From IMG/VR virus record IMGVR_UViG_2617270966_000007: a stretch of DNA of 8,521 nucleotides; one strand, 5' to 3'. Each line of letters starts with the position of its first letter. Position 1 is the stretch's first letter. The notes under the pieces were generated by a model. It searched no databases. It was not told the origin of the DNA and saw only the letters and a list, made by a program, of their open reading frames with translations. The DNA comes from a virus (taxonomy: Duplodnaviria > Heunggongvirae > Uroviricota > Caudoviricetes). Below are positions 1-8,521 of the stretch, piece after piece. The position numbers and the translations under genes were made by a program.

Positions 1-387
1 TGTCTGGTCACGCAGCTGGTTGTCGCAGTGCCAGCACAACACCATTGCGCCGGTACCATAACGGTGAATGACGGTTTCGCTGTGATGATAATCGCCGTGT
101 GGCCACTGGCAGGATTTAATATGGCGCAACAGCCAGTCAGACAATGCACCAGCACCACCAGCAGCACGAATCACCCGTGCGTTACTGAAAAACGGCAGCA
201 ATGTTTTGTCTTCCACCAGCGGCTGGCGAGCGGCAGGAACGACCCCGGACGGCAGATTACGCATGCTTTTTGGTTCCGGCTCCACCAGTATTCTGCCGTT
301 ATGGAATGCTGACATTGATTCACGGCCTGGCTTAACGATAACCAGACCGAGTTCCGGTACCAGAACAGGTCGAAGTAATACCCGCAC
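1..387 (-). CDS. Partial CDS running off the left edge (about 129 codons in window): hypothetical phage protein with a Cys/His-rich putative zinc-binding (HNH-like) segment; possibly YdfU/DUF968-like
   Basis: Manual translation of the minus strand in the frame with codon first bases at 387, 384, ... gives an uninterrupted frame to position 1 (VRVLLRPVLVPELGLVIVKPGRESMSAFHNGRILVEPEPKSMRNLPSGVVPAARQPLVEDKTLLPFFSNARVIRAAGGAGALSDWLLRHIKSCQWPHGDYHHSETVIHRYGTGAMVLCWHCDNQLRDQT...). GTG at 387-385 lies 4 nt after GGAGG (396-392) and 2 nt after the upstream stop; alternative ATG at 315-313. Not in the ORF track because no stop is in the window. Family assignment is a guess from composition and the position downstream of hok. 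Confidence 0.5.
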   Translation of the reverse strand, partial: MRVLLRPVLVPELGLVIVKPGRESMSAFHNGRILVEPEPKSMRNLPSGVVPAARQPLVEDKTLLPFFSNARVIRAAGGAGALSDWLLRHIKSCQWPHGDYHHSETVIHRYGTGAMVLCWHCDNQLRDQT

Positions 388-388
388 A

Positions 389-667
389 TTACCTCCAGAT
401 CCGTTGCTGGAATGTGCGGGACGGACGCGCTGGCCGTTCTGAGTAAGGGAGCCTGACGGAGATTATCCAGTGACGGTAGTCGAGGCTAAGGGCTTTTTTA
501 ACCTCGCATCCGCGCCTGCGGTAACACTGAATGAGCCATTCAGCCTGTTCTTCGGTGCAGGGGTCGTGCTGATACCAGTCAGATTTGAATGCATGAGAAC
601 GCCGCCCGTGCCTGCTGGCAGGGGCGGCAGAGTTATCCGAATTGTAAAATTTGGTATCGTGCGCCAT
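389..667 (-). CDS. Small hypothetical protein (92 aa) downstream of hok; position resembles rem of Qin-type prophages
   Basis: ORF-track frame 389..796 trimmed to the internal ATG at 667-665, because the first 43 codons are encoded by the hok terminator hairpin and U-tract. The TAA stop (391-389) is immediately followed by the start of the next gene. No clear Shine-Dalgarno. Confidence 0.4.
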   Translation of the reverse strand: MAHDTKFYNSDNSAAPASRHGRRSHAFKSDWYQHDPCTEEQAEWLIQCYRRRGCEVKKALSLDYRHWIISVRLPYSERPARPSRTFQQRIWR

Positions 668-739
668 CTGTTTTCTCTGCTGGCGCAGCAGGTGCCAGTT
701 GTTCAGGCTGACGGATGGATTGTAAACCAGAACGACCAG

Positions 740-764
740 AAAAAACAAAACCCGCCGAAGCGGG
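740..764 (-). terminator. Rho-independent terminator downstream of hok
   Basis: On the minus strand: CCCGC-TTCG-GCGGG (5-bp GC stem, UUCG tetraloop; plus 751-764) followed directly by TTTTGTTTTTT (plus 750-740), about 70 nt after the hok stop codon. Confidence 0.7.
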
Positions 765-834
765 TTAAGTGCGGGTGCGTTGAGGATGCCTGACACATCA
801 GCGGTGGCGAGGGATTTCTCCCCCGCCGGGTCTC

Positions 835-990
835 TTACTCCTCAGGTTCGTAAGCTGTGAAGACAGCGACCTCCGTCTGGCCGGTTCGGATTCGTACCTC
901 GCAGAGGTCTTTCCTCGTTACCAGTGCCGTCACCATGACGGTTAAACAGATGACGATCAGGGCGATTAGCATCGCCTTTTGCTGCTTCAT
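835..990 (-). CDS. hok: Hok/Gef-family membrane toxin (type I toxin-antitoxin toxin), 51 aa, HokD/RelF-like
   Basis: Translation MKQQKAMLIALIVICLTVMVTALVTRKDLCEVRIRTGQTEVAVFTAYEPEE has the Hok signature (single transmembrane helix then LTRKDLCEVRIRTGQTEVAVF) and closely matches HokD as recalled. SD AAGGAG lies about 9 nt upstream of the ATG at 990-988. Confidence 0.9.
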   Translation of the reverse strand: MKQQKAMLIALIVICLTVMVTALVTRKDLCEVRIRTGQTEVAVFTAYEPEE

Positions 991-1047
991 AGCCTGCTTC
1001 TCCTTGCCTTTCGGCACGTAAGAGGCTAACCTACGTGTGTAGAGCAT
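835..1047 (-). CDS. Mok-like in-frame upstream extension of hok (70 codons)
   Basis: ORF-track frame begins MLYTRRLASYVPKGKEKQA and continues in frame into Hok. Chromosomal mok reading frames (for example MokC) are N-terminally extended, in-frame versions of hok. Whether this one is translated is unknown. Confidence 0.4.
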   Translation of the reverse strand: MLYTRRLASYVPKGKEKQAMKQQKAMLIALIVICLTVMVTALVTRKDLCEVRIRTGQTEVAVFTAYEPEE

Positions 1048-1470
1048 AGATATGGCCTCAGATTAATGTTAAGCGTCTTGCAGGACGCGTAATGTTAACT
1101 GGGGCTTTTCTCTATCTGCCTTTGGTGTTCATGCCTGAGACAGATAGCCTCAAGCACCCGCAGCCATTCTACTTAACTCCCGTCACCTCGCCAATATGAA
1201 ATCAATCAGAAAGGCGATCCATAAGAACAACAGCAAGGCAATAAATTGCCATTACAGCAGCAATAGCCAGCGCACATTTGAGAACCAGCACCACAACCTC
1301 CTGTATTGGACGTACACCAGTCCTGATAAATATGAGGCTGTCTCGTCAGTGATTCAATACAACTATTGGGTATAGTTTCTGTGATTTTGTTCTGTAGAAA
1401 TGGAACACAACAACCAGTCACCACCAGCACTTCTTTAAATACGCCAAGTCCGACGCAAGCTAACCTTCTA

Positions 1471-1494
1471 GTCCGCTTTGAGCGAAAAGCGGAC
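1471..1494. repeat. Palindromic hairpin GTCCGCTTT-GAGCGA-AAAGCGGAC (copy 1 of 2)
   Basis: 9-bp perfect stem with 6-nt loop, about 60 nt downstream of the HAD stop. Shares the stem GTCCGCTT/AAGCGGAC with the element at 2937-2960. No U-tract on either strand. Confidence 0.5.
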
Positions 1495-1554
1495 GTTGGA
1501 AGTTTAAAACTCGCGAACTACTCAGCGTCCATTGATGCGTATTGTGTAACGTGA

Positions 1555-2199
1555 TTAACCACAGATGATATTGAAACGTTCTCCGGAAATCTTGACCATA
1601 ATGTCAGACAGCTCGCTGACGGCATGGGCTTCAGATGATCCCAGAGCGTCAGGCTGAACAGCTATTACCGAAGCTCCACTTGCCAGCCCTGCTTTTATAC
1701 CCGCAGATGCATCCTCAAATACCACGCATTCACCAGGCTCAAGGCCCAAAGCCAAAGCTGCTTTGATGTAACCCTCGGGACTTGGTTTTCCCGTCATTAC
1801 ATCTTCTGCACACACCATTACTATGGGTAAGGGGAGATTAGCCGCTTTCATCCTGTTTTCGGCAAGCATTCTGCCTGCAGAAGTAACAAGTGCCCAGCTA
1901 TCCGGTGGCAGTTTTGATAAGAGTGCAGCGGCCCCTTTTACTTCAGTAACGCCTTCTGTCGTGTTGATTTCAACCTCTTCGAGTGAGGCCGCGATTTTAT
2001 TGGTTTTCTCACCTGCACCAATAAAATGCGTCAGTGTATCAATCGTTTGCCGCCCGTGTGCGTAAGCAATCACAGCCTGAGTATCAAGACCGTATTCTGC
2101 ACAAAAATCTCTCCAGACGCTTTCCACTACGGCTGTTGAATCAACCAGCGTACCGTCCATATCGAATAAAAAACCCTTAGCGTTGAATATCATTGCCAT
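1555..2199 (-). CDS. HAD-superfamily hydrolase, subfamily IA (sugar-phosphatase / beta-phosphoglucomutase-like)
   Basis: HAD motif I FDMDGTLVDS near the N-terminus, motif III lysine in GKPSPEGY, motif IV FEDASAGIKAGLASG. The second ATG (2193) has better SD spacing (AGGA, about 6 nt) and may be the true start. Lies 24-30 nt downstream of the Nudix stop, so likely co-transcribed. Confidence 0.85.
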   Translation of the reverse strand: MAMIFNAKGFLFDMDGTLVDSTAVVESVWRDFCAEYGLDTQAVIAYAHGRQTIDTLTHFIGAGEKTNKIAASLEEVEINTTEGVTEVKGAAALLSKLPPDSWALVTSAGRMLAENRMKAANLPLPIVMVCAEDVMTGKPSPEGYIKAALALGLEPGECVVFEDASAGIKAGLASGASVIAVQPDALGSSEAHAVSELSDIMVKISGERFNIICG

Positions 2200-2222
2200 T
2201 CCTTAATGGTTGCAGAAGAAAG

Positions 2223-2861
2223 TTAATCAAACCATGTTTTTTCATCACCTTTCGCTACTCTCAGGCTGACAGCAATCTGCTCAGGCACAATTCTTGAAAG
2301 CGACAATTCAGGCAGGTCGTTGACATCAAAAAAATCAGCATCGAGTGACTCATGGCTGATTGACAGGCTGCCACCTACTTCTTCACAGAGAAAAATCAGC
2401 TTGTAAACATGCCAGGGTAAAGGCGGATGGCCGTGAAGATTACGATCCCAAACTCCCAATAGTTTAGTCACTCTGACTTTTAATCCGGTTTCTTCTTCGA
2501 CCTCTCGACGCACAGCTTCAGAAGGTGTATCTCCAACATCTGCCCATCCGCCAGGAAGACTCCATAATCCATCTGCAGCCTCTTTCACCATCAGAATACG
2601 ATTATTACGCAGGATAAACGCACGCACATCTGTTTTGGGCGTCGCGTAACCCGTTTCCGATACATGAAACAAATCATTGCGGCTAATATCAAACTGCGAA
2701 CTCAGCAGTCCAGCGGCAATTTCACGCAAGGCTTCATAGCGTTCCTTGTCAAAGACGTCTTTTGAATAGGTCAGGCCTGACTGCGCGAGGGCATTTAGTC
2801 TCTGGGCAACAAAAATAAGCTTTTCTTGGGTCAACACTTCAGACATGTTTTTCATCTTCAT
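2223..2861 (-). CDS. Nudix hydrolase with an N-terminal extension domain (ADP-ribose pyrophosphatase-like architecture)
   Basis: Nudix box GWADVGDTPSEAVRREVEEETGL (residues 105-127, plus 2481-2549) fits G-x5-(E/D)-x7-REVxEExGL. About 100 aa of N-terminal domain precede it. Start is ambiguous among ATGs at 2861, 2855 and 2846; none has a strong SD. Confidence 0.85.
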   Translation of the reverse strand: MKMKNMSEVLTQEKLIFVAQRLNALAQSGLTYSKDVFDKERYEALREIAAGLLSSQFDISRNDLFHVSETGYATPKTDVRAFILRNNRILMVKEAADGLWSLPGGWADVGDTPSEAVRREVEEETGLKVRVTKLLGVWDRNLHGHPPLPWHVYKLIFLCEEVGGSLSISHESLDADFFDVNDLPELSLSRIVPEQIAVSLRVAKGDEKTWFD

Positions 2862-2936
2862 TTATGTATTCAGAGTTCCTGTTAAGGATACTGCTCAATT
2901 CAATGAAGAATAACAAATGCATCTGGCACCTGCTAT

Positions 2937-2960
2937 GTCCGCTTCTGGCACAAAGCGGAC
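2937..2960. repeat. Palindromic hairpin GTCCGCTT-CTGGCACA-AAGCGGAC (copy 2 of 2)
   Basis: 8-bp perfect stem with 8-nt loop, about 68 nt downstream of the 141-aa gene stop and upstream of the Nudix gene. Same stem as 1471-1494. Confidence 0.5.
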
Positions 2961-3028
2961 AACCACGCTAGCTCTACCCTGTGCCACAAAATGTCAATTT
3001 GCATCTGAACTAATGCACTTTAATCTCG

Positions 3029-3451
3029 TCACTTCAATAAATACCGAACATCACCCTGATAAAACGACAATATGCGCTGCATAACTTCACTCTTCCGGCA
3101 CTCGCGACAGATTATGTTCATACGCCTGTCGTAGCGGCGTATTTCTCCGTCGGGTAATGTCCAGATAAGGTCAGGATCAACCACAGATGGTTTCTTCAGA
3201 TTTGCCCTTGAGAGTTTTTTGCGGGCGTTTTGCCAGTCCTTACGCGCCTGTTCAGACGGGAATAACCCGTAAACAGAGTTGTATACATCGCCACTGGCAA
3301 CCAGCTCTCTGGCGAGAACACTCATCAGATATCTTGTCGCACCTGTCTTGGCTTCCAGTTGCCGCAACGTCTCGCGACCGCTCAGACGTACAAGTTCAAC
3401 AACCTGCCCTTTAATTTTTTCCCGCTCTTCTTGTGTAAATACTTTTGCCAT
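3029..3451 (-). CDS. Hypothetical phage protein (140 aa), translationally coupled to the upstream 256-aa gene
   Basis: ATG at 3451-3449 (MAKVFTQEEREK...) preceded by GGAGG at about 7 nt. The ORF-track start at 3466 is a TTG inside the coupling region. Basic C-terminal half (RRYDRRMNIICRECRK). No family recognised. Confidence 0.6.
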   Translation of the reverse strand: MAKVFTQEEREKIKGQVVELVRLSGRETLRQLEAKTGATRYLMSVLARELVASGDVYNSVYGLFPSEQARKDWQNARKKLSRANLKKPSVVDPDLIWTLPDGEIRRYDRRMNIICRECRKSEVMQRILSFYQGDVRYLLK

Positions 3452-3466
3452 AAGCGCCTCCGGCAA

Positions 3467-4237
3467 TCACTTTTCCGATACAACACGGCGGGAAGAATCA
3501 GTAATCTGTCGAACAATATCCCGGTGCTTGTTCAGCTCCCGCAGCGCGGCGCAGACTCGCTCCCACTTCTGAACATCACTTTTCGCCCTGCGCAGCGCCA
3601 GGTTTGCCCTGCGAAGGGACGGAAAAATCAGCTCATCTGCTTGCGTTTCGGTAAACGATGGCAACGGCTGCACAATGTCCGCCACAGTTTCTGTTTTAAT
3701 TTCTTCCTGTGTTGCGGCTTCCCGGACTGGTAACGCAGCACCTGCTGGCTGAGGAAAGGCCTTACCATCACTTTCCGTTACCAGCGCGGCTTTCGGCTCT
3801 GCTGGTAAATTATCGCCCGGCATGCAGTAACGAAATTTACCGTTCTGATTAACGCGTGCCAGCCGCCCCGTTGCGGTTACCACCGCCAGCGTGGAAGCAA
3901 CCTTGCGAGTACTGACACCGAACTTACCCGCCAGTTCCTCACACGTTTTAGCCCCATCCTGACCGATAAACTCAATCATCATGTCTGCGGTAACTTTTTG
4001 TTCGACCTCCCCGGTCAGCATATCCTGTGCTTCAGATTTTACTGGCCGCTCTTCGGTTACCCGGGATTCACCTTCGCCAGCCAGAAACCAGGTGTGACCA
4101 GTTTTATCAACGACGCCATTTCTTTTGAGTTCCCACAGCTCGTTGACAGCCTCTTCACGACTGATTCCAAGGCGAGCTGCCACCACATGTGAAGAGGCTT
4201 TTTTCAGTGCTTTCAGTGCGTCAGATACGGTTTCCAT
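3467..4237 (-). CDS. Hypothetical phage protein (256 aa) with two tandem winged-helix-like DNA-binding segments
   Basis: Two segments resembling wHTH domains (SSHVVAARLGISREEAVNELWELKRNGVV and KTCEELAGKFGVSTRKVASTLAVVTATGRLARV). GGAGG SD about 8 nt before the ATG at 4237. Starts 21 nt after the DnaC-like stop. Confidence 0.65.
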   Translation of the reverse strand: METVSDALKALKKASSHVVAARLGISREEAVNELWELKRNGVVDKTGHTWFLAGEGESRVTEERPVKSEAQDMLTGEVEQKVTADMMIEFIGQDGAKTCEELAGKFGVSTRKVASTLAVVTATGRLARVNQNGKFRYCMPGDNLPAEPKAALVTESDGKAFPQPAGAALPVREAATQEEIKTETVADIVQPLPSFTETQADELIFPSLRRANLALRRAKSDVQKWERVCAALRELNKHRDIVRQITDSSRRVVSEK

Positions 4238-4258
4238 TAAAATTTCCTCCGGACAAAA

Positions 4259-5005
4259 TTACTTCACAACCCTCATATTGCTGACATTTGGACGCCAGCT
4301 ATCCCAGTTAAACGTCACCCATCGACCACCGTTCATGGTCATGCGGTCCATAATCCTCTCACCAAGAAGCGTACTCATTGCGGCATGATTCAGGTTTGTT
4401 AACATCCCGACACTGCACAGTGATGCTGTCCGGCGATCAATTATCTGGTGCAATACCACCTGCTCGTTTTTCGTCTCCCGCTGAACGCCTATTTCATCCA
4501 GGACCAGCAAATCAACCCCGCAAAGCTCCTGTAAAAATTTTTCCCCGGATTTGCCGTTGTCGTAGCTGTCATGCAACACGCTCATGACGTCAGACACGGT
4601 GACGATAATCACGCTGCGCCCCTTCACCATCAGCCGGTTGCCCATCGCCGCTGCAAGGTGATTTTTCCCGGTGCCGGTTTTACCGCTGAACACAAAATTC
4701 GTGCACCCGGTCATCAGTTCGTCAGCTATGGATTTGGCCTGGCTCAGCGCGTATTTTTGCCCGTCGTTCTGCACCTGATAATTTGCAAACGAGCATTTGC
4801 TGTGCAGAGGCTGGATGCCCGAACGATTCAGGATTTTTTCCACCCGCAACTGGCGATTCTGGCGGTTAATCTCCTCGCTGCGTTTTCGTCCTTCAGCAAG
4901 TTGCCATTCCCGCCACTCCTCCACCGTCCGGTACGGTGGAACCGACCCCTGTGGTGCAAGTCTGCGAATACGTTCAAGAACCCCAACTGCCGCAATGTTT
5001 TTCAT
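4259..5005 (-). CDS. ydaV: DnaC-like helicase loader / IstB-type AAA+ ATPase (phage replication protein, YdaV-like)
   Basis: P-loop FSGKTGTGKNHLAAAMG and Walker B DLLVLDEIG. Length 248 aa. Starts 7 nt after the O-like gene stop with a G-rich SD. Symbol assigned by synteny and length match to the Rac prophage ydaU-ydaV pair. Confidence 0.85.
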   Translation of the reverse strand: MKNIAAVGVLERIRRLAPQGSVPPYRTVEEWREWQLAEGRKRSEEINRQNRQLRVEKILNRSGIQPLHSKCSFANYQVQNDGQKYALSQAKSIADELMTGCTNFVFSGKTGTGKNHLAAAMGNRLMVKGRSVIIVTVSDVMSVLHDSYDNGKSGEKFLQELCGVDLLVLDEIGVQRETKNEQVVLHQIIDRRTASLCSVGMLTNLNHAAMSTLLGERIMDRMTMNGGRWVTFNWDSWRPNVSNMRVVK

Positions 5006-5011
5006 GACACG

Positions 5012-5974
5012 TCACCCCCTGAATCCCGGCGGTATTTCAGTGTCCGGTTCAGAAATGTGATTCACGCAACGCTGCGCAGGCGAACGCCCCAGGCGGATAA
5101 CCAGTTCATCCCATTTTTCCCGGAGTTTTGCCGGACTCATGATGTTTTTTACCCAGAACGAATCCCGCTGGAGACGCCCAAACATTTCACAAATTTGTCT
5201 GTGAGTTCTGCCATCCAGCATCCGCATTGTGCGAACGTCATTGGCCCATGCTGTCCAGTTGGGTTCTTTCGGTCTAGTGATCTCGCCATCATAGCTGGCC
5301 GCCTGCTCGTAAAGACTCACGATTCGTCCCCAGATCCACTGTGCGCACACCAAATCTTCCTGACTTCCCCACTGGCGTTTTTTCGCACTGAACACAACCG
5401 CGTCAGGGTGTCGGGTTAAAAAATCCTGTTCAGCCGTCTGCGGGTCCGGTTGCGAAGCGTCCGGACAAGAAGATCTTTTATCTGACGGTTCAGGTTTTAA
5501 TACTGACGGATCGGGGTCAATCATCGCCCCCCTAATCGGCAGTTTTTTATCAACAGTTGATCCATCAAAATTTGACGGGTCAACCGTTGAGGGGGCAAAA
5601 TTTGACGGGTCAACTGTTAACGGGTCATTTTTTGCCGGGCTAATTTTTCTTTTCGGTTTATATGACTCACGCGCCGCCGCCGCAGCTGCTTCGAGTTTTT
5701 CCACATTAAGCCGATAGATATTGCTTACATTACGCCCACCGACCTTACGCTCTTCCTTCGTCAGCCAGCCCTCTTTCGCCAGTTCTGCAATAGCCGATTT
5801 CACTGTGGATTCACTTCTTGCACCGATCTGACGCCGGATAGTTTCAATGGCAGGCCATGACACACCCTCGTCATTGCTGTAGTCTACAAGACGGGCCATA
5901 ACCGCCACCCTGGATAAGATCATGCCGGTGAAGGCGCACCCTTCCCAGACAAGACCATGAAGCTTGCTGCTCAT
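5012..5974 (-). CDS. Phage replication initiator (O-like / replisome organiser, YdaU-like) with N-terminal wHTH and an internal TVDPSNF repeat linker
   Basis: The ORF track starts at a GTG (5989); the first ATG is at 5974 (MSSKLHGLVWEG...) with a GGGGG SD. N-terminal HTH-like segment (VSWPAIETIRRQIGARSESTVKSAIAELAKEGWL). The central region encodes PLTVDPSNFAPSTVDPSNFDGSTVD from direct DNA repeats. Sits immediately upstream of the DnaC-like gene. Confidence 0.8.
   Translation of the reverse strand: MSSKLHGLVWEGCAFTGMILSRVAVMARLVDYSNDEGVSWPAIETIRRQIGARSESTVKSAIAELAKEGWLTKEERKVGGRNVSNIYRLNVEKLEAAAAAARESYKPKRKISPAKNDPLTVDPSNFAPSTVDPSNFDGSTVDKKLPIRGAMIDPDPSVLKPEPSDKRSSCPDASQPDPQTAEQDFLTRHPDAVVFSAKKRQWGSQEDLVCAQWIWGRIVSLYEQAASYDGEITRPKEPNWTAWANDVRTMRMLDGRTHRQICEMFGRLQRDSFWVKNIMSPAKLREKWDELVIRLGRSPAQRCVNHISEPDTEIPPGFRG
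5544..5621. repeat. Iteron-like direct repeats (30-bp period) with adjacent AT-rich stretch inside the O-like gene: putative replication origin
   Basis: CAAAATTTGACGGGTCAACCGTTGA (5566-5590) and CAAAATTTGACGGGTCAACTGTTAA (5596-5620), plus a partial third copy TCAACAGTTGA (5550-5560). Each contains a TCAAC-N-GTTGA inverted core. Followed by the AT-rich run cattttttgccgggctaatttttcttttcggtttatatga (5626-5665). Confidence 0.45.
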
Positions 5975-5996
5975 AAAACCCCCGAACACCGTGCTT

Positions 5997-6422
5997 TTAG
6001 TGCATCACCACAGCATTCCCTGCCGGGCCGCCGCGATTCATCTGGTCATACAAAACAACCGCTGACGCAACAAAATCGCCGACATCCTTCCCCAGCCGAT
6101 CCCGCCGTTCGACAATCTCCCGGTAATACTCAGAGCTGTGACTGCGCATACGGGCCACCAGCAGAGGCGGCATTGCCTTTTCGATCGCCGGTAACAGAGC
6201 CTGAATTTTTTCAACAGCATCAGGGGTGTCTTTATCCAGCCAACGGAAAATTTTCTGTGTATTACGGGCCAGGGCTTCCGGATGGCTGTCGTCGTACAGT
6301 TCAGGGAACGTCATCCCCAGTTCGAAATAAGTCCGGGCTATTTCAGCTGCAGGAACTTTCTCACCATCAGGGTATGCCCAAGCATTCATCGCCATGCGGA
6401 TGTGCTCATGTTTGATTTTCAT
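5997..6422 (-). CDS. ydaT: YdaT-like prophage protein (CII-analogous regulator / reported toxin family)
   Basis: 141 aa, N-terminus MKIKHEHI, located between the Cro-like gene and the replication genes as ydaT is in Rac. The start overlaps the upstream Cro-like gene by 17 nt. Family call rests on synteny, length and recalled N-terminal similarity. Confidence 0.65.
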   Translation of the reverse strand: MKIKHEHIRMAMNAWAYPDGEKVPAAEIARTYFELGMTFPELYDDSHPEALARNTQKIFRWLDKDTPDAVEKIQALLPAIEKAMPPLLVARMRSHSSEYYREIVERRDRLGKDVGDFVASAVVLYDQMNRGGPAGNAVVMH

Positions 6423-6729
6423 GAATCATTTGCCTCTTGATGCTTCGGGTATGATCGTTTTCGTCATTTGGTTGCTTCATCGACATATTCTGCGAATAAC
6501 ATGACGAGCGTCGTAAGTATGTCCAATCAACATCAGGACGAAGTTCTTCACACAGGACACCACCTTTTGTTGCTCGTTCAATCGCAGGACATCTCTCAGC
6601 AGGCAACTGACGTACACCTTTGATCCATTGATTTACGCTTGGAGGAGATACACCTAAAAGCCTAGCCATTGCTGATTGCCCACCGACAACAGCACAAGCT
6701 CGTTTGAATGAATAGTTATCTTTTTTCAT
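6406..6729 (-). CDS. Cro-like / YdaS-like HTH DNA-binding protein (first gene of the rightward early operon)
   Basis: ATG at 6729-6727 (MKKDNYSFKRACAVVGGQSAMARLLGVSPPSVNQWIKG...) with GGAG about 8 nt upstream; HTH in QSAMARLLGVSPPSVNQWI. Divergent from the repressor gene, downstream of the predicted PR. The ORF-track start at 6750 would lie upstream of the predicted transcription start. Confidence 0.75.
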   Translation of the reverse strand: MKKDNYSFKRACAVVGGQSAMARLLGVSPPSVNQWIKGVRQLPAERCPAIERATKGGVLCEELRPDVDWTYLRRSSCYSQNMSMKQPNDENDHTRSIKRQMIHENQT

Positions 6730-6756
6730 CGAATGAACTCCAAAAAACACGCAACA

Positions 6757-6824
6757 ATATTAGGCTTAGCCTAATGCAATTGTCAATAGGCTAAGCCTAA
6801 TCCATCGAGAGTAGGGATTGCCTA
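6757..6824. promoter_or_regulatory. OR-like operator cluster (three 13-bp operators) with divergent PR (minus strand) and candidate PRM (plus strand)
   Basis: Operators TAGGCTTAGCCTA (6761-6773), TAGGCTAAGCCTA (6787-6799), TAGGGATTGCCTA (6812-6824), centres 26 and 25 bp apart. PR on the minus strand: -35 TTGACA (6786-6781), 18-bp spacer, -10 TAATAT (6762-6757). Candidate PRM: -35 TTGCCT (6819-6824), -10 GACTAT (6842-6847), which would start transcription at about the repressor ATG. Confidence 0.6.
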
Positions 6825-6853
6825 ACGCGATGCGCATAGGAGACTATTAAGCA

Positions 6854-7330
6854 ATGCTTAGTGGTAAAGACTTAGGCCGAGCGATAGAGCAGGCCATTAA
6901 CAAAAAAATTGCATCAGGAGCCGTCAAATCAAAGGCGGAAATCGCACGTCATTTCAAAGTCCAACCACCATCAATCCATGACTGGATTAAGAAAGGTTCG
7001 ATAAGTAAAGACAAACTTCCAGAACTATGGCGTTTCTTTTCTGATGTGGTTGGTCCAGAGCATTGGGGGCTTAACGAATACCCCATACCAACCCCATCCA
7101 CTTCAGATACAAAAAGTGAACTTTTAGACATAAACAGCCTTTATCAAGCCGCCTCTGATGAAAAAAGAGCAATTGTGGCTTTCCTCTTATCTGGAAATGC
7201 TACGGAGCCTAGTTGGGTTGATCATGACGTTCGCGCCTACATTGCCGCAATGGAAATGAAGGTAGCTAACTATCTGAAAAATCAAGAATCAAAACGGAAA
7301 AGCCAGAACATCACCAAGACAGGAACTTAA
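6854..7330 (+). CDS. CI-type prophage repressor (XRE-family HTH, 158 aa; RacR-like by position and length)
   Basis: N-terminal HTH (SKAEIARHFKVQPPSIHDWIKKG). Divergent from the Cro-like gene across the operator cluster, and flanked on both sides by the same 13-bp palindromic operators. No obvious S24 peptidase Ser/Lys domain in the short C-terminal part. Confidence 0.8.
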   Translation: MLSGKDLGRAIEQAINKKIASGAVKSKAEIARHFKVQPPSIHDWIKKGSISKDKLPELWRFFSDVVGPEHWGLNEYPIPTPSTSDTKSELLDINSLYQAASDEKRAIVAFLLSGNATEPSWVDHDVRAYIAAMEMKVANYLKNQESKRKSQNITKTGT

Positions 7331-7344
7331 ACTTATATGGTCCG

Positions 7345-7366
7345 ACGGGAAATTCCTAGTTCCCGT
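7345..7366 (+). terminator. Possible weak terminator hairpin after the repressor gene
   Basis: ACGGGAA-attcctag-TTCCCGT (7-bp stem) followed by TAGTTAACT; the U-tract is poor. Confidence 0.25.
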
Positions 7367-7425
7367 TAGTTAACTCCTACTACCTCTCCCACAAACCATC
7401 ACCTATTAGGTCGCGCCCAGATTAT

Positions 7426-7467
7426 TAGGCATAGCCTATTGACAAGTAATTAGGCATTTCCTATAGT
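7426..7467 (+). promoter_or_regulatory. PL-like early promoter with two operators (OL-like)
   Basis: -35 TTGACA (7439-7444), 17-bp spacer, -10 TATAGT (7462-7467). Operators TAGGCATAGCCTA (7426-7438, abutting the -35) and TAGGCATTTCCTA (7451-7463, covering spacer and -10). Mirror image of the PR arrangement. Confidence 0.6.
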
Positions 7468-7648
7468 TTTCCCATACCAACCCATCCCGTCCCACACAAT
7501 ACAGGGCAATACCTCGAGTTACCAGGCAGTGGTCAGGGGTTAAGTAGCCAGCCCGATGCGTAAGAACATGACGGCAGGGTTCAACTTTAATAACTATGCA
7601 GCAGGTTTTTGTTCCGCTACCCCGGCGTTAAGGGGAAATGAGGTCAGC

Positions 7649-7801
7649 ATGGATACTATCGATCTTGGCAACAGCGAATCTCTGGTATGTGGTGTGTTCC
7701 CAAACCAGGACGGTACGTTCACCGCGATGACGTATACCAAAAGCAAAACGTTTAAAACCGCAGCTGGCGCGCGTCGCTGGTTAACCAGAAACACTGACTG
7801 A
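7649..7801 (+). CDS. Small early-left protein (50 aa), YdaF-like (DUF1391-type)
   Basis: ATG at 7649 (MDTIDLGNSESLVCGVFPNQDGTFTAMTYTKSKTFKTAAGARRWLTRNTD) preceded by GGGGAAATGAGG with GAGG at 5 nt. The ORF-track start at 7556 lacks an SD. Family assigned from recalled similarity to Rac ydaF. Confidence 0.6.
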   Translation: MDTIDLGNSESLVCGVFPNQDGTFTAMTYTKSKTFKTAAGARRWLTRNTD

Positions 7802-7812
7802 TGAGGTTGACG

Positions 7813-8214
7813 ATGGAATTTAAAGATTTACCAGTACCATTCCAGGAAATGGCATCGAATGTGGTTCGCTCTCAACTGGCGACTCTTGACCTGAGTACTG
7901 TAGAAAAGGAAACCATCGATACTATATCCGGTAACGTGCGTCGTGCCTTTATAGGTCTGTATGAAGAGAAGCGCCTATTCGGCGGACAGAATTCGCCTGA
8001 AAACAAGAATCAAGCAAATGATGAGAAGCTGAAACACATTATCGCCTTACTTTTGGAAGACGCAAAACGTCTACAGCAACTGGAACCAAATGCAGGCACA
8101 GAGGCCCGCATTTGGATTGCCATGAAATCACTCAAATGTGAAAGCAGTGATTATTTCAAAACAACAATTAAAACTACTCAACTTTCGGGAGAGCTACTGA
8201 AGAAATTGCCATAA
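7813..8214 (+). CDS. Hypothetical early-left protein (133 aa), no recognisable domain
   Basis: ATG at 7813 (MEFKDLPVPFQEMASNVV...) with GAGG 6 nt upstream, 11 nt after the upstream stop. Predicted mostly helical and charged. Last gene before the IS1 insertion. Confidence 0.6.
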   Translation: MEFKDLPVPFQEMASNVVRSQLATLDLSTVEKETIDTISGNVRRAFIGLYEEKRLFGGQNSPENKNQANDEKLKHIIALLLEDAKRLQQLEPNAGTEARIWIAMKSLKCESSDYFKTTIKTTQLSGELLKKLP

Positions 8215-8259
8215 GAGCATGGTCTTTCTCTTGTTCTGCAAGATGAGCATTAATACCTG

Positions 8260-8521
8260 GGTAGTGACTCCAACTTACTGATAGTGTTTTATGTTCAGAT
8301 AATGCCCGATGACCTTGTCATGCAGCTCCACCGATTTTGAGAACGACAGCGACTTCCGTCCCAGCCTTGCCAGATGTTGTCTCAGATTCAGATTATGTCG
8401 CTCAATGCGCTGAGTGTAACGCTTGCTGATAACGTGCAGCTTTCCCTTCAGGCGTGATTCATACAGCGGCCAGCCATCCGTCATCCATACCACGACCTCA
8501 AAGGCCGACAGCAGGCTCAGA
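8260..8521 (-). mobile_element. IS1 insertion sequence, partial (right end with terminal inverted repeat; continues beyond window)
   Basis: Terminal inverted repeat GGTAGTGACTCCAACTTACTGATAG starts at 8260 and resembles the IS1 IR as recalled. The interior encodes the InsB C-terminus on the minus strand. Confidence 0.9.
8275..8521 (-). CDS. insB: IS1 transposase InsB, C-terminal part (CDS continues beyond the window edge)
   Basis: Translation ...[71 protein letters not shown] matches the IS1 InsB C-terminus as recalled. The stop codon lies inside the terminal IR. Confidence 0.9.

Follow-up and report, generated by a model that had tools for sequence, protein, structure and literature searches.

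A RacR-type immunity cassette in a lambdoid prophage of Escherichia coli: the known Rac switch, a predicted operator-covered PL arm and a candidate regulatory leader RNA

Overview

The stretch of DNA analysed here, 8,521 nucleotides in full and referred to as the window, very probably belongs to a Rac-type lambdoid prophage of E. coli, with its immunity cassette at 6431-7472 and a switch mechanism like that of strain K-12. Most parts of this switch are already known, as they have been mapped by experiment in the K-12 Rac prophage, which several groups have dissected since 2017; here the switch was re-derived from sequence alone. The sequence-only reading of the locus had announced a clean immunity specificity. 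The set of RacR-type operators and promoters behind that claim is real, but the specificity is not new: it is the known RacR/Rac immunity.

The present analysis establishes where the sites lie and that they are clustered beyond chance, how the promoters are laid out, to which families the proteins belong, the conservation across genera and the boundaries of the cassette. RacR binding, the starts of PR and PRM, the leaderless transcript and the octamer (PMC9638921, PMC5700373, PMC11014345), as well as the derepression of left-operon genes, have been published for K-12 only, and the RacR allele found here, 92% identical to K-12 RacR (b1356), would be expected to behave similarly. Two modest additions are made. 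The first is an OL1/OL2-PL arm located 3' of racR, which has apparently not been pointed out in the Rac literature examined. The second is a structured leader with which the left operon begins and which is a candidate for a new regulatory RNA of many lambdoid phages. The features are collected in Table 1.

Table 1. Coordinates of the features of the immunity region and its surroundings (positions in the window)
Feature	Position	Strand	Remarks
ydaT, cII-like	5997-6422	-	Pfam YdaT_toxin (PF06254) 9e-11; PHROG 163 CII-like activator, 2.6e-46
ydaS, Cro-like, first gene of the PR operon	6406-6729	-	Pfam YdaS_toxin (PF15943) 3.8e-30; P22_Cro 1e-08; PHROG 35 transcriptional repressor
YdaT box ATGATT-n6-AATCAA, ydaS/ydaT junction	6412-6429	-	1 mismatch to TTGATT-N6-AATCAA
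Immunity cassette: ydaS, OR, racR, OL/PL	6431-7472	.	from comparison with a heteroimmune E. coli prophage, strain MLI114
PR (equivalent of PydaST)	6757-6786	-	TTGACA (6786-6781), 18 nt, TAATAT (6762-6757); 10/12 consensus; predicted start ~6750
Operator O1, TAGGCTTAGCCTA	6761-6773	.	0 mismatches; in PR spacer, 2-nt overlap with -10
Operator O2, TAGGCTAAGCCTA	6787-6799	.	0 mismatches; adjoins PR -35
Operator O3, TAGGGATTGCCTA	6812-6824	.	1 mismatch; overlaps candidate PRM -35
PRM-like promoter (equivalent of PracR3)	6818-6854	+	TTGCCT (6818-6823), 18 nt, GACTAT (6842-6847); predicted +1 = A6854 (racR ATG)
AGGAG, Shine-Dalgarno-like	6838-6842	+	11 nt before racR ATG; usable solely by transcripts starting farther upstream
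Operator O4, TAAGCAATGCTTA	6848-6860	.	2 mismatches, perfect palindrome; over racR ATG and predicted PRM +1
racR, 158-aa repressor	6854-7330	+	NCBIfam NF049929 equivalog, 246.8 bits (cutoff 200)
Weak hairpin 3' of racR	7344-7367	+	8-bp stem, no U-tract; -10.9 kcal/mol, z = -1.2
Operator OL1, TAGGCATAGCCTA	7426-7438	.	0 mismatches; adjoins PL -35
PL	7439-7467	+	TTGACA (7439-7444), 17 nt, TATAGT (7462-7467); 11/12 consensus; predicted start ~7474
Operator OL2, TAGGCATTTCCTA	7451-7463	.	1 mismatch; in PL spacer, 2-nt overlap with -10
Conserved structured leader RNA, PL operon	7476-7646	+	~170 nt; covariation; behind many unrelated operator/promoter types

Operators and the right arm

Palindromes of the form TAGGC-N3-GCCTA with at most one mismatch occur at five sites in the 8.5 kb, compared with 0.17 expected by chance, and none of 200 shuffled sequences gave five; a chance origin is thereby ruled out. 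All five are found within two control regions flanking racR. The sequence-only reading had counted these five and had missed a sixth, O4, whose N3 is the racR ATG itself. The spacings given in that reading agree with the measured centre-to-centre distances, namely 26 and 25 bp for the three sites upstream of racR and 25 bp for the two downstream. A further sequence at 7407-7419 (TAGGTCGCGCCCA) was considered as a third OL operator and rejected. It was left out of the count because only its left half-site is conserved and its spacing differs (19 bp, versus 23 bp in Mixta).

A promoter scan of 6600-7700 returned PR and PL as the sole promoter-like sites, PL being the only one on the plus strand, and the near-consensus hexamers claimed for both were recovered. 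In each arm one operator adjoins the -35 hexamer without a gap, while the other occupies the spacer and ends in the 'TA' with which the -10 begins. Both arms are near-identical when read 5' to 3', and this geometry confirms the mirror-image arrangement that had been described.

The corresponding elements have been studied directly in K-12. The published operator consensus, (T/A)TAGGC-n3-GCCTA(T/A), is covered by RacR DNase I footprints, the ydaST promoter is the region protected at the lowest RacR concentration, and an operator whose n3 overlaps the racR ATG has already been reported (PMC9638921). Binding has also been demonstrated by EMSA, with three complexes, and by ChIP-qPCR (PMC5700373), reporter assays show repression by the K-12 protein (PMC9638921, PMC5700373), and the protein has been described as an octamer acting on four inverted repeats (PMC11014345). 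Inverted repeats of this consensus are present here between racR and ydaS at 6761, 6787, 6812 and 6848, one of them over the racR ATG, and sequence comparison places all six operators in the same order in K-12 Rac. By analogy, RacR of this allele would bind the predicted operators and repress. The single K-12 ydaS promoter, TTGACA/18/TAATAT, was mapped by primer extension and -10 mutagenesis (PMC9638921). The ydaS promoter of the window has the same hexamers, the same spacing and an overlapping operator, and the PR/OR part of the sequence-only reading is thus matched by published work on K-12.

The ydaS gene begins with an ATG at 6729, with a Shine-Dalgarno-like GGAG 9 nt upstream. The YdaT box has exactly the sequence quoted for K-12 in PMC11879457. 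In K-12, YdaS represses its own promoter but not racR (PMC9638921). Consequently, the analogy between YdaS and Cro is incomplete.

The racR gene, its promoter and its product

A gap of 6 nt separates the -10-like hexamer GACTAT from the first base of the racR ATG. The hexamers of this PRM-like promoter are poor, GACTAT matching TATAAT at 3/6 positions. They are those named by the sequence-only reading, which had given the spacer as 17 nt, whereas it is 18. The leaderless racR mRNA proposed there fits the geometry, which places +1 on the ATG, and the transcript would be leaderless by analogy with K-12, where PracR3 is leaderless, is the strongest of three racR promoters and is abolished by a -10 substitution over bases equivalent to those found here (PMC9638921). 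Three to four racR promoters have been described in K-12. Because of the AGGAG located 11 nt upstream of the ATG, expression of racR may come in part from leadered transcripts, which may use this sequence.

RacR differs from the K-12 protein in its N-terminal domain by A23S, I30V and H42Y. A search with all 158 residues gave no Pfam family at E <= 0.01, including no S24 domain and no HTH match, and no family was found in PHROGs. A sequence search against the PDB returned nothing meaningful (best E-value 0.63), and the single-sequence AlphaFold2 model (pLDDT 50.5, pTM 0.32) was too poor for a fold search. Published predicted models show structural similarity to the lambda-repressor-like N-terminal HTH (PMC11014345), while the C-terminal domain is unrelated to that of CI and the protein is SOS-unresponsive (PMC10448788, PMC11014345). 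The C-terminal S24 peptidase domain of lambda CI-type (LexA/S24) repressors, which permits RecA-stimulated autocleavage, is thus lacking from RacR. Since there is no autocleavage domain, induction must use another route.

The left arm and its conservation

The predicted PL/OL arm is strongly supported by comparative evidence, which consists of its conservation in other genera and the position of the cassette boundary at 7472/7473, and by the published derepression of the left operon. The genes ydaG, ydaF, kilR, racC and recET are reported to be derepressed upon loss or depletion of RacR, and zygotic induction of the rac recombination genes has been described (PMC5917428). PL is predicted to fire at about 7474, and RacR would bind OL1 and OL2.

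Loci of RacR homologues from other genera, with repressors 58-78% identical, were compared. These loci keep one operator in the PR spacer and -10, one adjoining TGTCAA and one on the ATG. The last of these, the O4 homologue, reads TAGGC-ATG-CTTA, with one mismatch, in every other-genus locus in which it is present, and the O3 sequence TAGG(G/A)ATTGCCTA is likewise kept in homologues from other genera. On the downstream side, OL1 is conserved 3' of RacR homologues in Mixta, Proteus, Achromobacter and a Pseudomonadota MAG. In five other-genus loci a downstream operator pair exactly 25 bp apart has TTGAC between its members, and a TAnnAT-type -10 begins in the last 'TA' of the second site; wherever the pair occurs, OL2 lies at exactly this distance from OL1. 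Altogether, 30 distinct operator/-35/operator/-10 arms were found, and variation among them is mostly confined to the N3 and the linkers.

The boundaries of the cassette were obtained from a heteroimmune prophage of E. coli strain MLI114, which encodes a LexA-family repressor. This prophage is 99.3% identical to the window over 1-6430 and 97% over 7473-8260, and has no similarity to 6431-7472. The right end of the cassette is therefore the predicted PL start, with homology resuming at 7473, 6 nt past the PL -10.

An improbable alternative is that RacR binds 7426-7463 where no working promoter exists. The site would then be a looping anchor to OR or a relic of a duplicated PR arm, and the left operon would be transcribed from another place or by polymerases reading on from racR. 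In favour of this reading, the PL start is predicted rather than mapped, RacR forms octamers in solution (PMC11014345), no intrinsic terminator is predicted after racR up to the PL region, and the two arms are so alike that duplication is plausible. The only structure found 3' of racR is a weak hairpin, the stem of which is maintained in K-12 by a G-C to A-U change. However, PL has near-consensus hexamers at a 17-nt spacing, and its -35 and TAnnAT-type -10 are kept in the five other-genus loci amid unrelated flanking sequence. The resumption of homology just past the -10 also speaks for a promoter. Of 148 distinct upstream regions from phages with other operator types, 132 have the -10 of their best promoter 34-40 nt before the conserved leader motif. 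Looping could, in addition, coexist with repression of a promoter.

In the Rac literature examined, neither the OL pair and PL (7426-7467) nor a mapped start or binding assay for this region was found. Rac papers ascribe the RacR octamer to the four sites between racR and ydaS, and describe the regulon of this repressor as uncharacterised. A search for OL sequence strings in literature text gave nothing relevant; it was uninformative, since figures are not indexed and a control string from K-12 OR/-35 was missed as well. Literature searches on KilS with Rac and on sbcA with racR found nothing. As a working promoter, the OL1/OL2-PL arm would offer a direct mechanism for RacR control of ydaG/ydaF, kilR, racC, recET and xis/int.

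Prophage context

A second alternative, slightly less probable than the promoterless arm, sees in the locus a module of the chromosome, either toxin-repressor or atypical toxin-antitoxin, in which RacR restrains toxic YdaS and YdaT, and regards the likeness to lambda as superficial. In its favour, racR can be deleted solely when ydaS-ydaT is removed, overproduction of YdaT is lethal (PMC11879457, PMC5700373), and the Pfam family names still contain 'toxin'. The genes belong, however, to a complete set of lambdoid early genes, flanked by the left operon at one end and by O-like and DnaC-like replication genes at the other. In a prophage that is identical elsewhere, a CI/Cro cassette takes the place of the whole RacR cassette, and a RacR-type immunity region also occurs in the deposited phage record vB_EcoS-683R6. 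The second operator-controlled promoter points away from ydaST, and Jobling's critique likewise argues for a phage switch (PMC5917428).

The left operon is cut off by an IS1 remnant after about 8260. Because the operon is shortened in this way, the prophage is probably defective.

Proposed mechanism

At the level of sequence, a multipartite OR lies between the divergent PR and PRM, and an OL covers PL downstream of the repressor gene. In the proposed immunity switch, RacR dimers would bind palindromes of 13-15 bp, (A/T)TAGGC-N3-GCCTA(A/T), at O1-O4 between racR and ydaS and at OL1 and OL2 located 3' of racR. O1 and O2, which bracket the -35 and fill the spacer and -10 of PR, would govern ydaS, ydaT and the replication genes. 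OL1 and the one-mismatch OL2 would in the same way cover PL, from which the leader and the left operon, beginning with its DUF1391 gene, are expected to be transcribed. Since operators occupy the -35 and the spacer/-10 of both promoters, RacR would exclude RNA polymerase and close both early operons. Autoregulation could be provided by the weaker O3 at the -35 and by O4 at the +1/ATG of the weak PRM, so that high RacR levels would limit further RacR synthesis. YdaS, as a Cro-like protein, and YdaT, as a cII-like protein with its box at 6412-6429, would complete the lambda-style switch.

It is hardly credible that the palindromes are mainly YdaS sites, or sites shared equally by YdaS and RacR whose hierarchy reflects YdaS: although ydaS and the operators share one exchangeable cassette, footprints of the CP-933P repressor and of its YdaS cover a common region (PMC8630535) and K-12 YdaS autorepresses (PMC9638921), binding of K-12 RacR to these repeats is direct by EMSA, ChIP and footprinting (PMC9638921, PMC5700373), and sharing of sites would complement control by RacR rather than replace it.

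The OL1/OL2-PL arm also raises the hypothesis of looping between OR and OL. The octamer reported for RacR might join the four OR sites to the two OL sites and so close a loop of about 640 bp, much as lambda CI does over 2.4 kb.

Leader RNA of the left operon

The leader opens the PL transcript, the start of which is predicted rather than mapped, and its conservation begins 6-13 nt past the -10. It is common to heteroimmune lambdoid phages and prophages with many unrelated types of repressor and operator, and in all of them its distance from the phage's own -10 is the same. Its structure was built by hand from compensatory changes and checked against slid and shuffled controls. In the alignment, 83.6% of cells are paired, compared with 29-45% in slid controls, and double changes occur in 16 of 23 pairs; the helices backed by covariation lie between 7484 and 7540. 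Taken alone, the leader sequence has a minimum-free-energy fold that does not surpass those of shuffles (z = +1.5). RNAalifold, applied to MAFFT and CM alignments, either recovered helix P1 in part only or paired invariant bases in another way.

A search of Rfam with 7468-7650 gave no match, and no description of the leader was found in the literature, including by a sequence-string search. The window contains no second copy in the PR operon, and there is no N-like gene among the early-left genes examined. The leader may tentatively be read as a cis-acting regulator of elongation in the left operon, acting as a processive antitermination element of the put or nut kind, or gating Rho by way of a short upstream ORF, although we consider this rather doubtful than probable. 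It is of interest as a candidate new regulatory RNA in a large lambdoid group whose examined early-left genes include no N-like gene.

Comparison with known systems

The closest relative is the K-12 Rac prophage, which shares the gene order and orientation, the PR hexamers with their 18-nt spacer, the YdaT box and the -10-like hexamer placing +1 on the racR ATG. The OL1/-35/OL2/-10 arm is present there as well, 95-100 bp past the racR stop codon. The two loci differ in the N3 centres and the linkers. The K-12 PracR2 -10, AGTAAG, corresponds to ATCGAG here and is not conserved; the PracR3 -10, GAGAAT/GAATAT, corresponds to GAGACT/GACTAT, and the PracR4 -35, TTGACG, to CTGACG. The flanks are also different, with a 325-aa replication initiator in the window, a DUF1391 gene in place of ydaG as the first gene of the left operon, and the left operon shortened by IS1.

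The sequence-only reading had described the switch as built as in lambda. The divergent, multi-operator layout justifies this description, whereas the absence of the autocleavage domain and the number of operators do not. As in lambda, divergent repressor and cro-like genes are accompanied by two sites per early promoter, a cII-like activator, a PL located 3' of the repressor gene in the same orientation, a predicted leaderless repressor mRNA and, according to the literature on K-12 RacR, a repressor octamer. Lambda operators are spaced 23-24 bp apart, compared with 25-26 bp here, and number 3+3 sites of 17 bp rather than 4+2 sites of 13-15 bp. The repressor of the window has no S24/LexA-type autocleavage domain and no Pfam HTH match, one operator covers its start codon, YdaS is reported not to repress racR, and no N gene follows PL.

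The paaR2-ydaS-ydaT locus of CP-933P in E. coli O157:H7 (Jurenas et al. 2021, PMC8630535) resembles the present one in the YdaS and YdaT partners; its repressor mRNA is leaderless by 5' RACE, as predicted here, and its repressor is an octamer, as reported for K-12 RacR. Its authors describe, close to the repressor locus, a putative promoter of the PL type that carries three operators, and they report that PaaR2 and YdaS act as regulators (PMC8630535). In contrast, its repressor and operators (GTTTAGTAA-type repeats) are unrelated, and a toxin-antitoxin pair follows the repressor gene. The missing S24 domain fits the description of RacR as a Gifsy-repressor-like, SOS-unresponsive protein (PMC10448788). 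Non-cleavable repressors of the Gifsy type and DicA of Qin are inactivated by antirepressors; none for RacR was identified in the window or in the literature examined.

For the leader, the relevant known system is putL of phage HK022. Direct relatedness was rejected, as blastn detected no similarity and the leader covariance model R1 had no match in the HK022 loci L021 and L022. The lengths also differ, 73 nt for putL as opposed to ~170 nt for the leader. What the two have in common is that the PL transcript of a lambdoid phage without an N gene would begin with a structured RNA, and one possibility is that the PL leader, as HK022 put does, causes read-through of terminators by binding RNA polymerase.

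Identity of the switch and published work

The switch is that of Rac, whose immunity region is already known; only the undocumented left arm (OL/PL) and the leader RNA merit further attention. The window has the content of a lambdoid prophage early region. Segment 6400-7900 matches E. coli chromosomes at up to 99.3% identity by megablast; about 1,080 of 5,426 genomes have 80% or more of it, and its annotation in those chromosomes is racR with adjacent genes. A K-12-type racR region with all operators present is also found on a 5.2-kb contig (JARKOR010000130.1) assigned to 'Candidatus Nanosynbacter', almost certainly through E. coli contamination of the MAG.

Features of the early region and its surroundings
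Feature	Position	Strand	Description
racR	6854-7330	+	codes for the 158-aa repressor RacR
ydaS	6729-6406	-	Pfam YdaS_toxin and P22_Cro; diverges from racR
ydaT	6422-5997	-	Pfam YdaT_toxin, PHROG 'CII-like activator'; diverges from racR
HTH/DnaD-like replication initiator gene		-	operon divergent from racR
DnaC/IstB-like ATPase gene		-	operon divergent from racR
YdaT box	6412-6429		ATGATT-n6-AATCAA
O1, O2, O3	6761-6773, 6787-6799, 6812-6824		right-hand operators (OR)
O4	6848-6860		OR; TAAGCAATGCTTA, central triplet is the racR ATG
OL1, OL2	7426-7438, 7451-7463		predicted left operators (OL)
PR	6786-6757	-	TTGACA-18-TAATAT; consensus promoter scan
PL	7439-7467	+	TTGACA-17-TATAGT; consensus promoter scan
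Hairpin	7344-7367	+	8 bp, no U-tract; directly after racR stop
Leader	7476-7646	+	about 170 nt, non-coding; downstream of PL -10, start of PL operon
Helix P2	7484-7495 with 7529-7540	+
Helix P1	7501-7512 with 7516-7527	+	closes conserved loop CAAUACnnnGAGUUA
Leader ORF	7568-7648	+	invariant AUG (7568) within GAACAUGACGGC; GAGG 9 nt upstream
3' hairpin	7620-7635	+	CCCC-GGCGUUAA-GGGG; just before DUF1391 start at 7649
IS1 transposase fragment	ORF 8493-8275		Pfam DDE_Tnp_IS1, 3.4e-38
hok/sok locus	835-1159	-	type I toxin-antitoxin
Hok/Gef family ORF	835-1047
sok antisense RNA	985-1159		Rfam RF01794, 114.7 bits
HAD-family and NUDIX hydrolase genes	1555-2861	-	PR operon, between DUF977 and hok

All six operators are also found in K-12 Rac, in identical order. 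Three GCCTAA/TTAGGC repeats were noted there by Krishnamurthi et al. (2017), who saw RacR form three complexes with the DNA in EMSA and bind it in vivo in ChIP-qPCR (PMC5700373). A 2022 NAR paper mapped in K-12 one ydaS promoter, exactly TTGACA/18 nt/TAATAT, and three racR promoters, the strongest of which (PracR3) yields a leaderless mRNA; in RacR footprints the lowest concentration sufficed to protect the ydaST promoter, the racR promoter region needed more protein, and the operator consensus (T/A)TAGGC-n3-GCCTA(T/A) included a site whose n3 overlaps the ATG (PMC9638921). Later work showed that RacR forms octamers in solution, binding DNA through its N-terminal domain and oligomerising through a C-terminal one that differs from lambda CI's (PMC11014345), and described YdaT as an analogue of cII that works through the YdaT box (PMC11879457).

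Operators and promoters

Five matches to TAGGC-N3-GCCTA with at most one mismatch occur in the 8,521 bp, against 0.17 expected, and none of 200 shuffles reaches five. The five operators proposed in the sequence-only reading are thus borne out at their positions, although a sixth, O4, was overlooked. When two mismatches are allowed, there are ten matches (2.2 expected), seven of them within the two control regions. PR and PL are the sole promoter-like sites that the consensus scan returned within 6600-7700. Read 5' to 3', one arm is ATTAGGCTTAGCCTA-TTGACA-ATTGCAT-TAGGCTAAGCCTA-ATAT and the other ATTAGGCATAGCCTA-TTGACA-AGTAAT-TAGGCATTTCCTA-TAGT; because they are nearly identical in sequence, their description as mirror images is accurate. 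The candidate racR promoter PRM has its -10, GACTAT (6842-6847), ending six bases before A6854. Consequently, the predicted start on the racR start codon stands, with a spacer of 18 nt rather than the 17 nt originally counted. The OR, PR and leaderless-PRM readings match the mapped K-12 promoters and footprinted sites; they are right and have been published before.

On the right-hand side, E. coli Rac-type loci carry four operators, and RacR homologue loci outside Escherichia carry three. The extra operator seems to have come with a 25-bp insertion that separates the -35-abutting site from the TAGG(G/A)ATTGCCTA site, judging from a comparison of window 6787-6824 with loci L008-L014 near 2435-2472. 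The 2022 paper's three conserved operators (PMC9638921) and the four inverted repeats of later papers (PMC11014345) are thereby brought into agreement.

The left arm

No description of the OL pair or PL was found in the available Rac literature. In three RNA-seq studies, ydaG, ydaF, kilR, ydaE, racC, recE/T and xis/int rise strongly as RacR falls, and the rac recombination genes were already known in 1973 to undergo zygotic induction (PMC5917428); a RacR-controlled leftward promoter is therefore expected. At sequence level, three comparisons support the OL/PL assignment. Firstly, the right-hand operators are kept at loci in Mixta, Proteus, Klebsiella, Achromobacter and two MAGs whose RacR homologues show 58-78% identity, and in five of these loci two further sites follow the gene, spaced by exactly 25 bp and enclosing TTGAC, with a -10 (TAATAT, TAACAT or TACTAT) beginning in the last 'TA' of the second site. 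Each such pair is 0.6 to 2.6 kb away from OR, and the sequence around it is otherwise unrelated. Secondly, among all fetched loci the operator/-35/operator/-10 arm occurs in 30 distinct versions, whose variation is concentrated at the N3 centre and in the linkers, away from the half-sites. Thirdly, the E. coli MLI114 prophage, which encodes a LexA-family repressor, is 99.3% identical to window 1-6430 and 97% to 7473-8260, with no similarity in between. This break defines 6431-7472 as a classic exchangeable immunity cassette, beginning at the ydaS/ydaT junction and ending six bases past the PL -10.

The hairpin between racR and OL is a possible weak terminator or processing site; in K-12, a compensatory change from G-C to A-U preserves its stem.

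The PL leader RNA

The leader is common to many heteroimmune lambdoid phages and prophages. In phages with repressors and operators unrelated to RacR, its identity is 76-97%, and the similarity sets in about 10 nt or less from the -10 that belongs to each phage. Pattern scans of IMG/VR returned more than 200 copies, preceded by a wide variety of operator types, and in 132 of 148 distinct upstream regions the best promoter has its -10 placed 34-40 nt ahead of CAAUAC, the invariant loop motif. RacR loci of other genera lack the element, which marks it as a separate module.

Helices P1 and P2 and the 3' hairpin are backed by covariation, with compensatory changes in the long 5' stem of divergent copies. 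Of the cells tested in 26 diverse sequences, 83.6% are paired, compared with 29-45% for slid partners; double changes occur in 16 of 23 pairs (3-8 in slid controls), and the covariation score is 0.281 (at most 0.088 in controls). On four of five measures, all 500 shuffles fall short of these values; on the fifth, further pair types, 123 attain them. The G-U pairs are compatible with the plus strand only.

The leader ORF begins with the conserved codons M-T-A, and its length varies among phages from 6 aa to over 20 aa; in the window it continues in frame into the DUF1391 gene, and it may be a regulatory upstream ORF. The leader is unmatched in Rfam and has no similarity to HK022 putL; its position brings to mind putL and the leader of lambda N. 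Some phages have a further, incomplete copy of the 3' module (GCGCAGCAGG..GUUCCGCC..hairpin) on the same strand, 100-700 nt past the full leader (comparison loci L143 4500-4551, L144 599-648 and L208 4795-4848), reminiscent of repeated nut-like sites.

Other elements of the window

Homology to related prophages stops at 8260, and IS1 sequence follows (8261-8521); the left operon is therefore cut short by IS1, which probably leaves the prophage defective. The HAD/NUDIX pair, also present in E. coli MLI114, looks like moron-type cargo. A weak match to the Salmonella Gifsy-1 sRNA IsrK (RF01394) at 745-826 (-) scores 27 bits, below the gathering score of 50.

Proposed working of the switch

The perfect palindromes O1, O2 and OL1, together with OL2 (one mismatch), cover the spacer/-10 and the upstream -35 edge at PR and PL, and RacR bound to O1/O2 and OL1/OL2 should block RNA polymerase at both promoters. 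At higher RacR, the weaker sites O3 (one mismatch, over the PRM -35) and O4 (two mismatches, over +1/ATG) would mediate negative autoregulation, in agreement with the order of protection in the K-12 footprints. The RacR octamer may loop the DNA between OL and OR; these lie about 640 bp apart in E. coli and Mixta and 1.9-2.6 kb apart in Achromobacter, so no fixed phasing is evident. AGGAG (6838-6842), 11 nt upstream of the racR ATG, could serve racR transcripts starting further upstream, which beside the leaderless transcripts would parallel the PRE and PRM transcripts of lambda. A Pfam search found no S24 domain in RacR, and the repressor is reported to be SOS-unresponsive (PMC10448788); its induction therefore differs from that of lambda.
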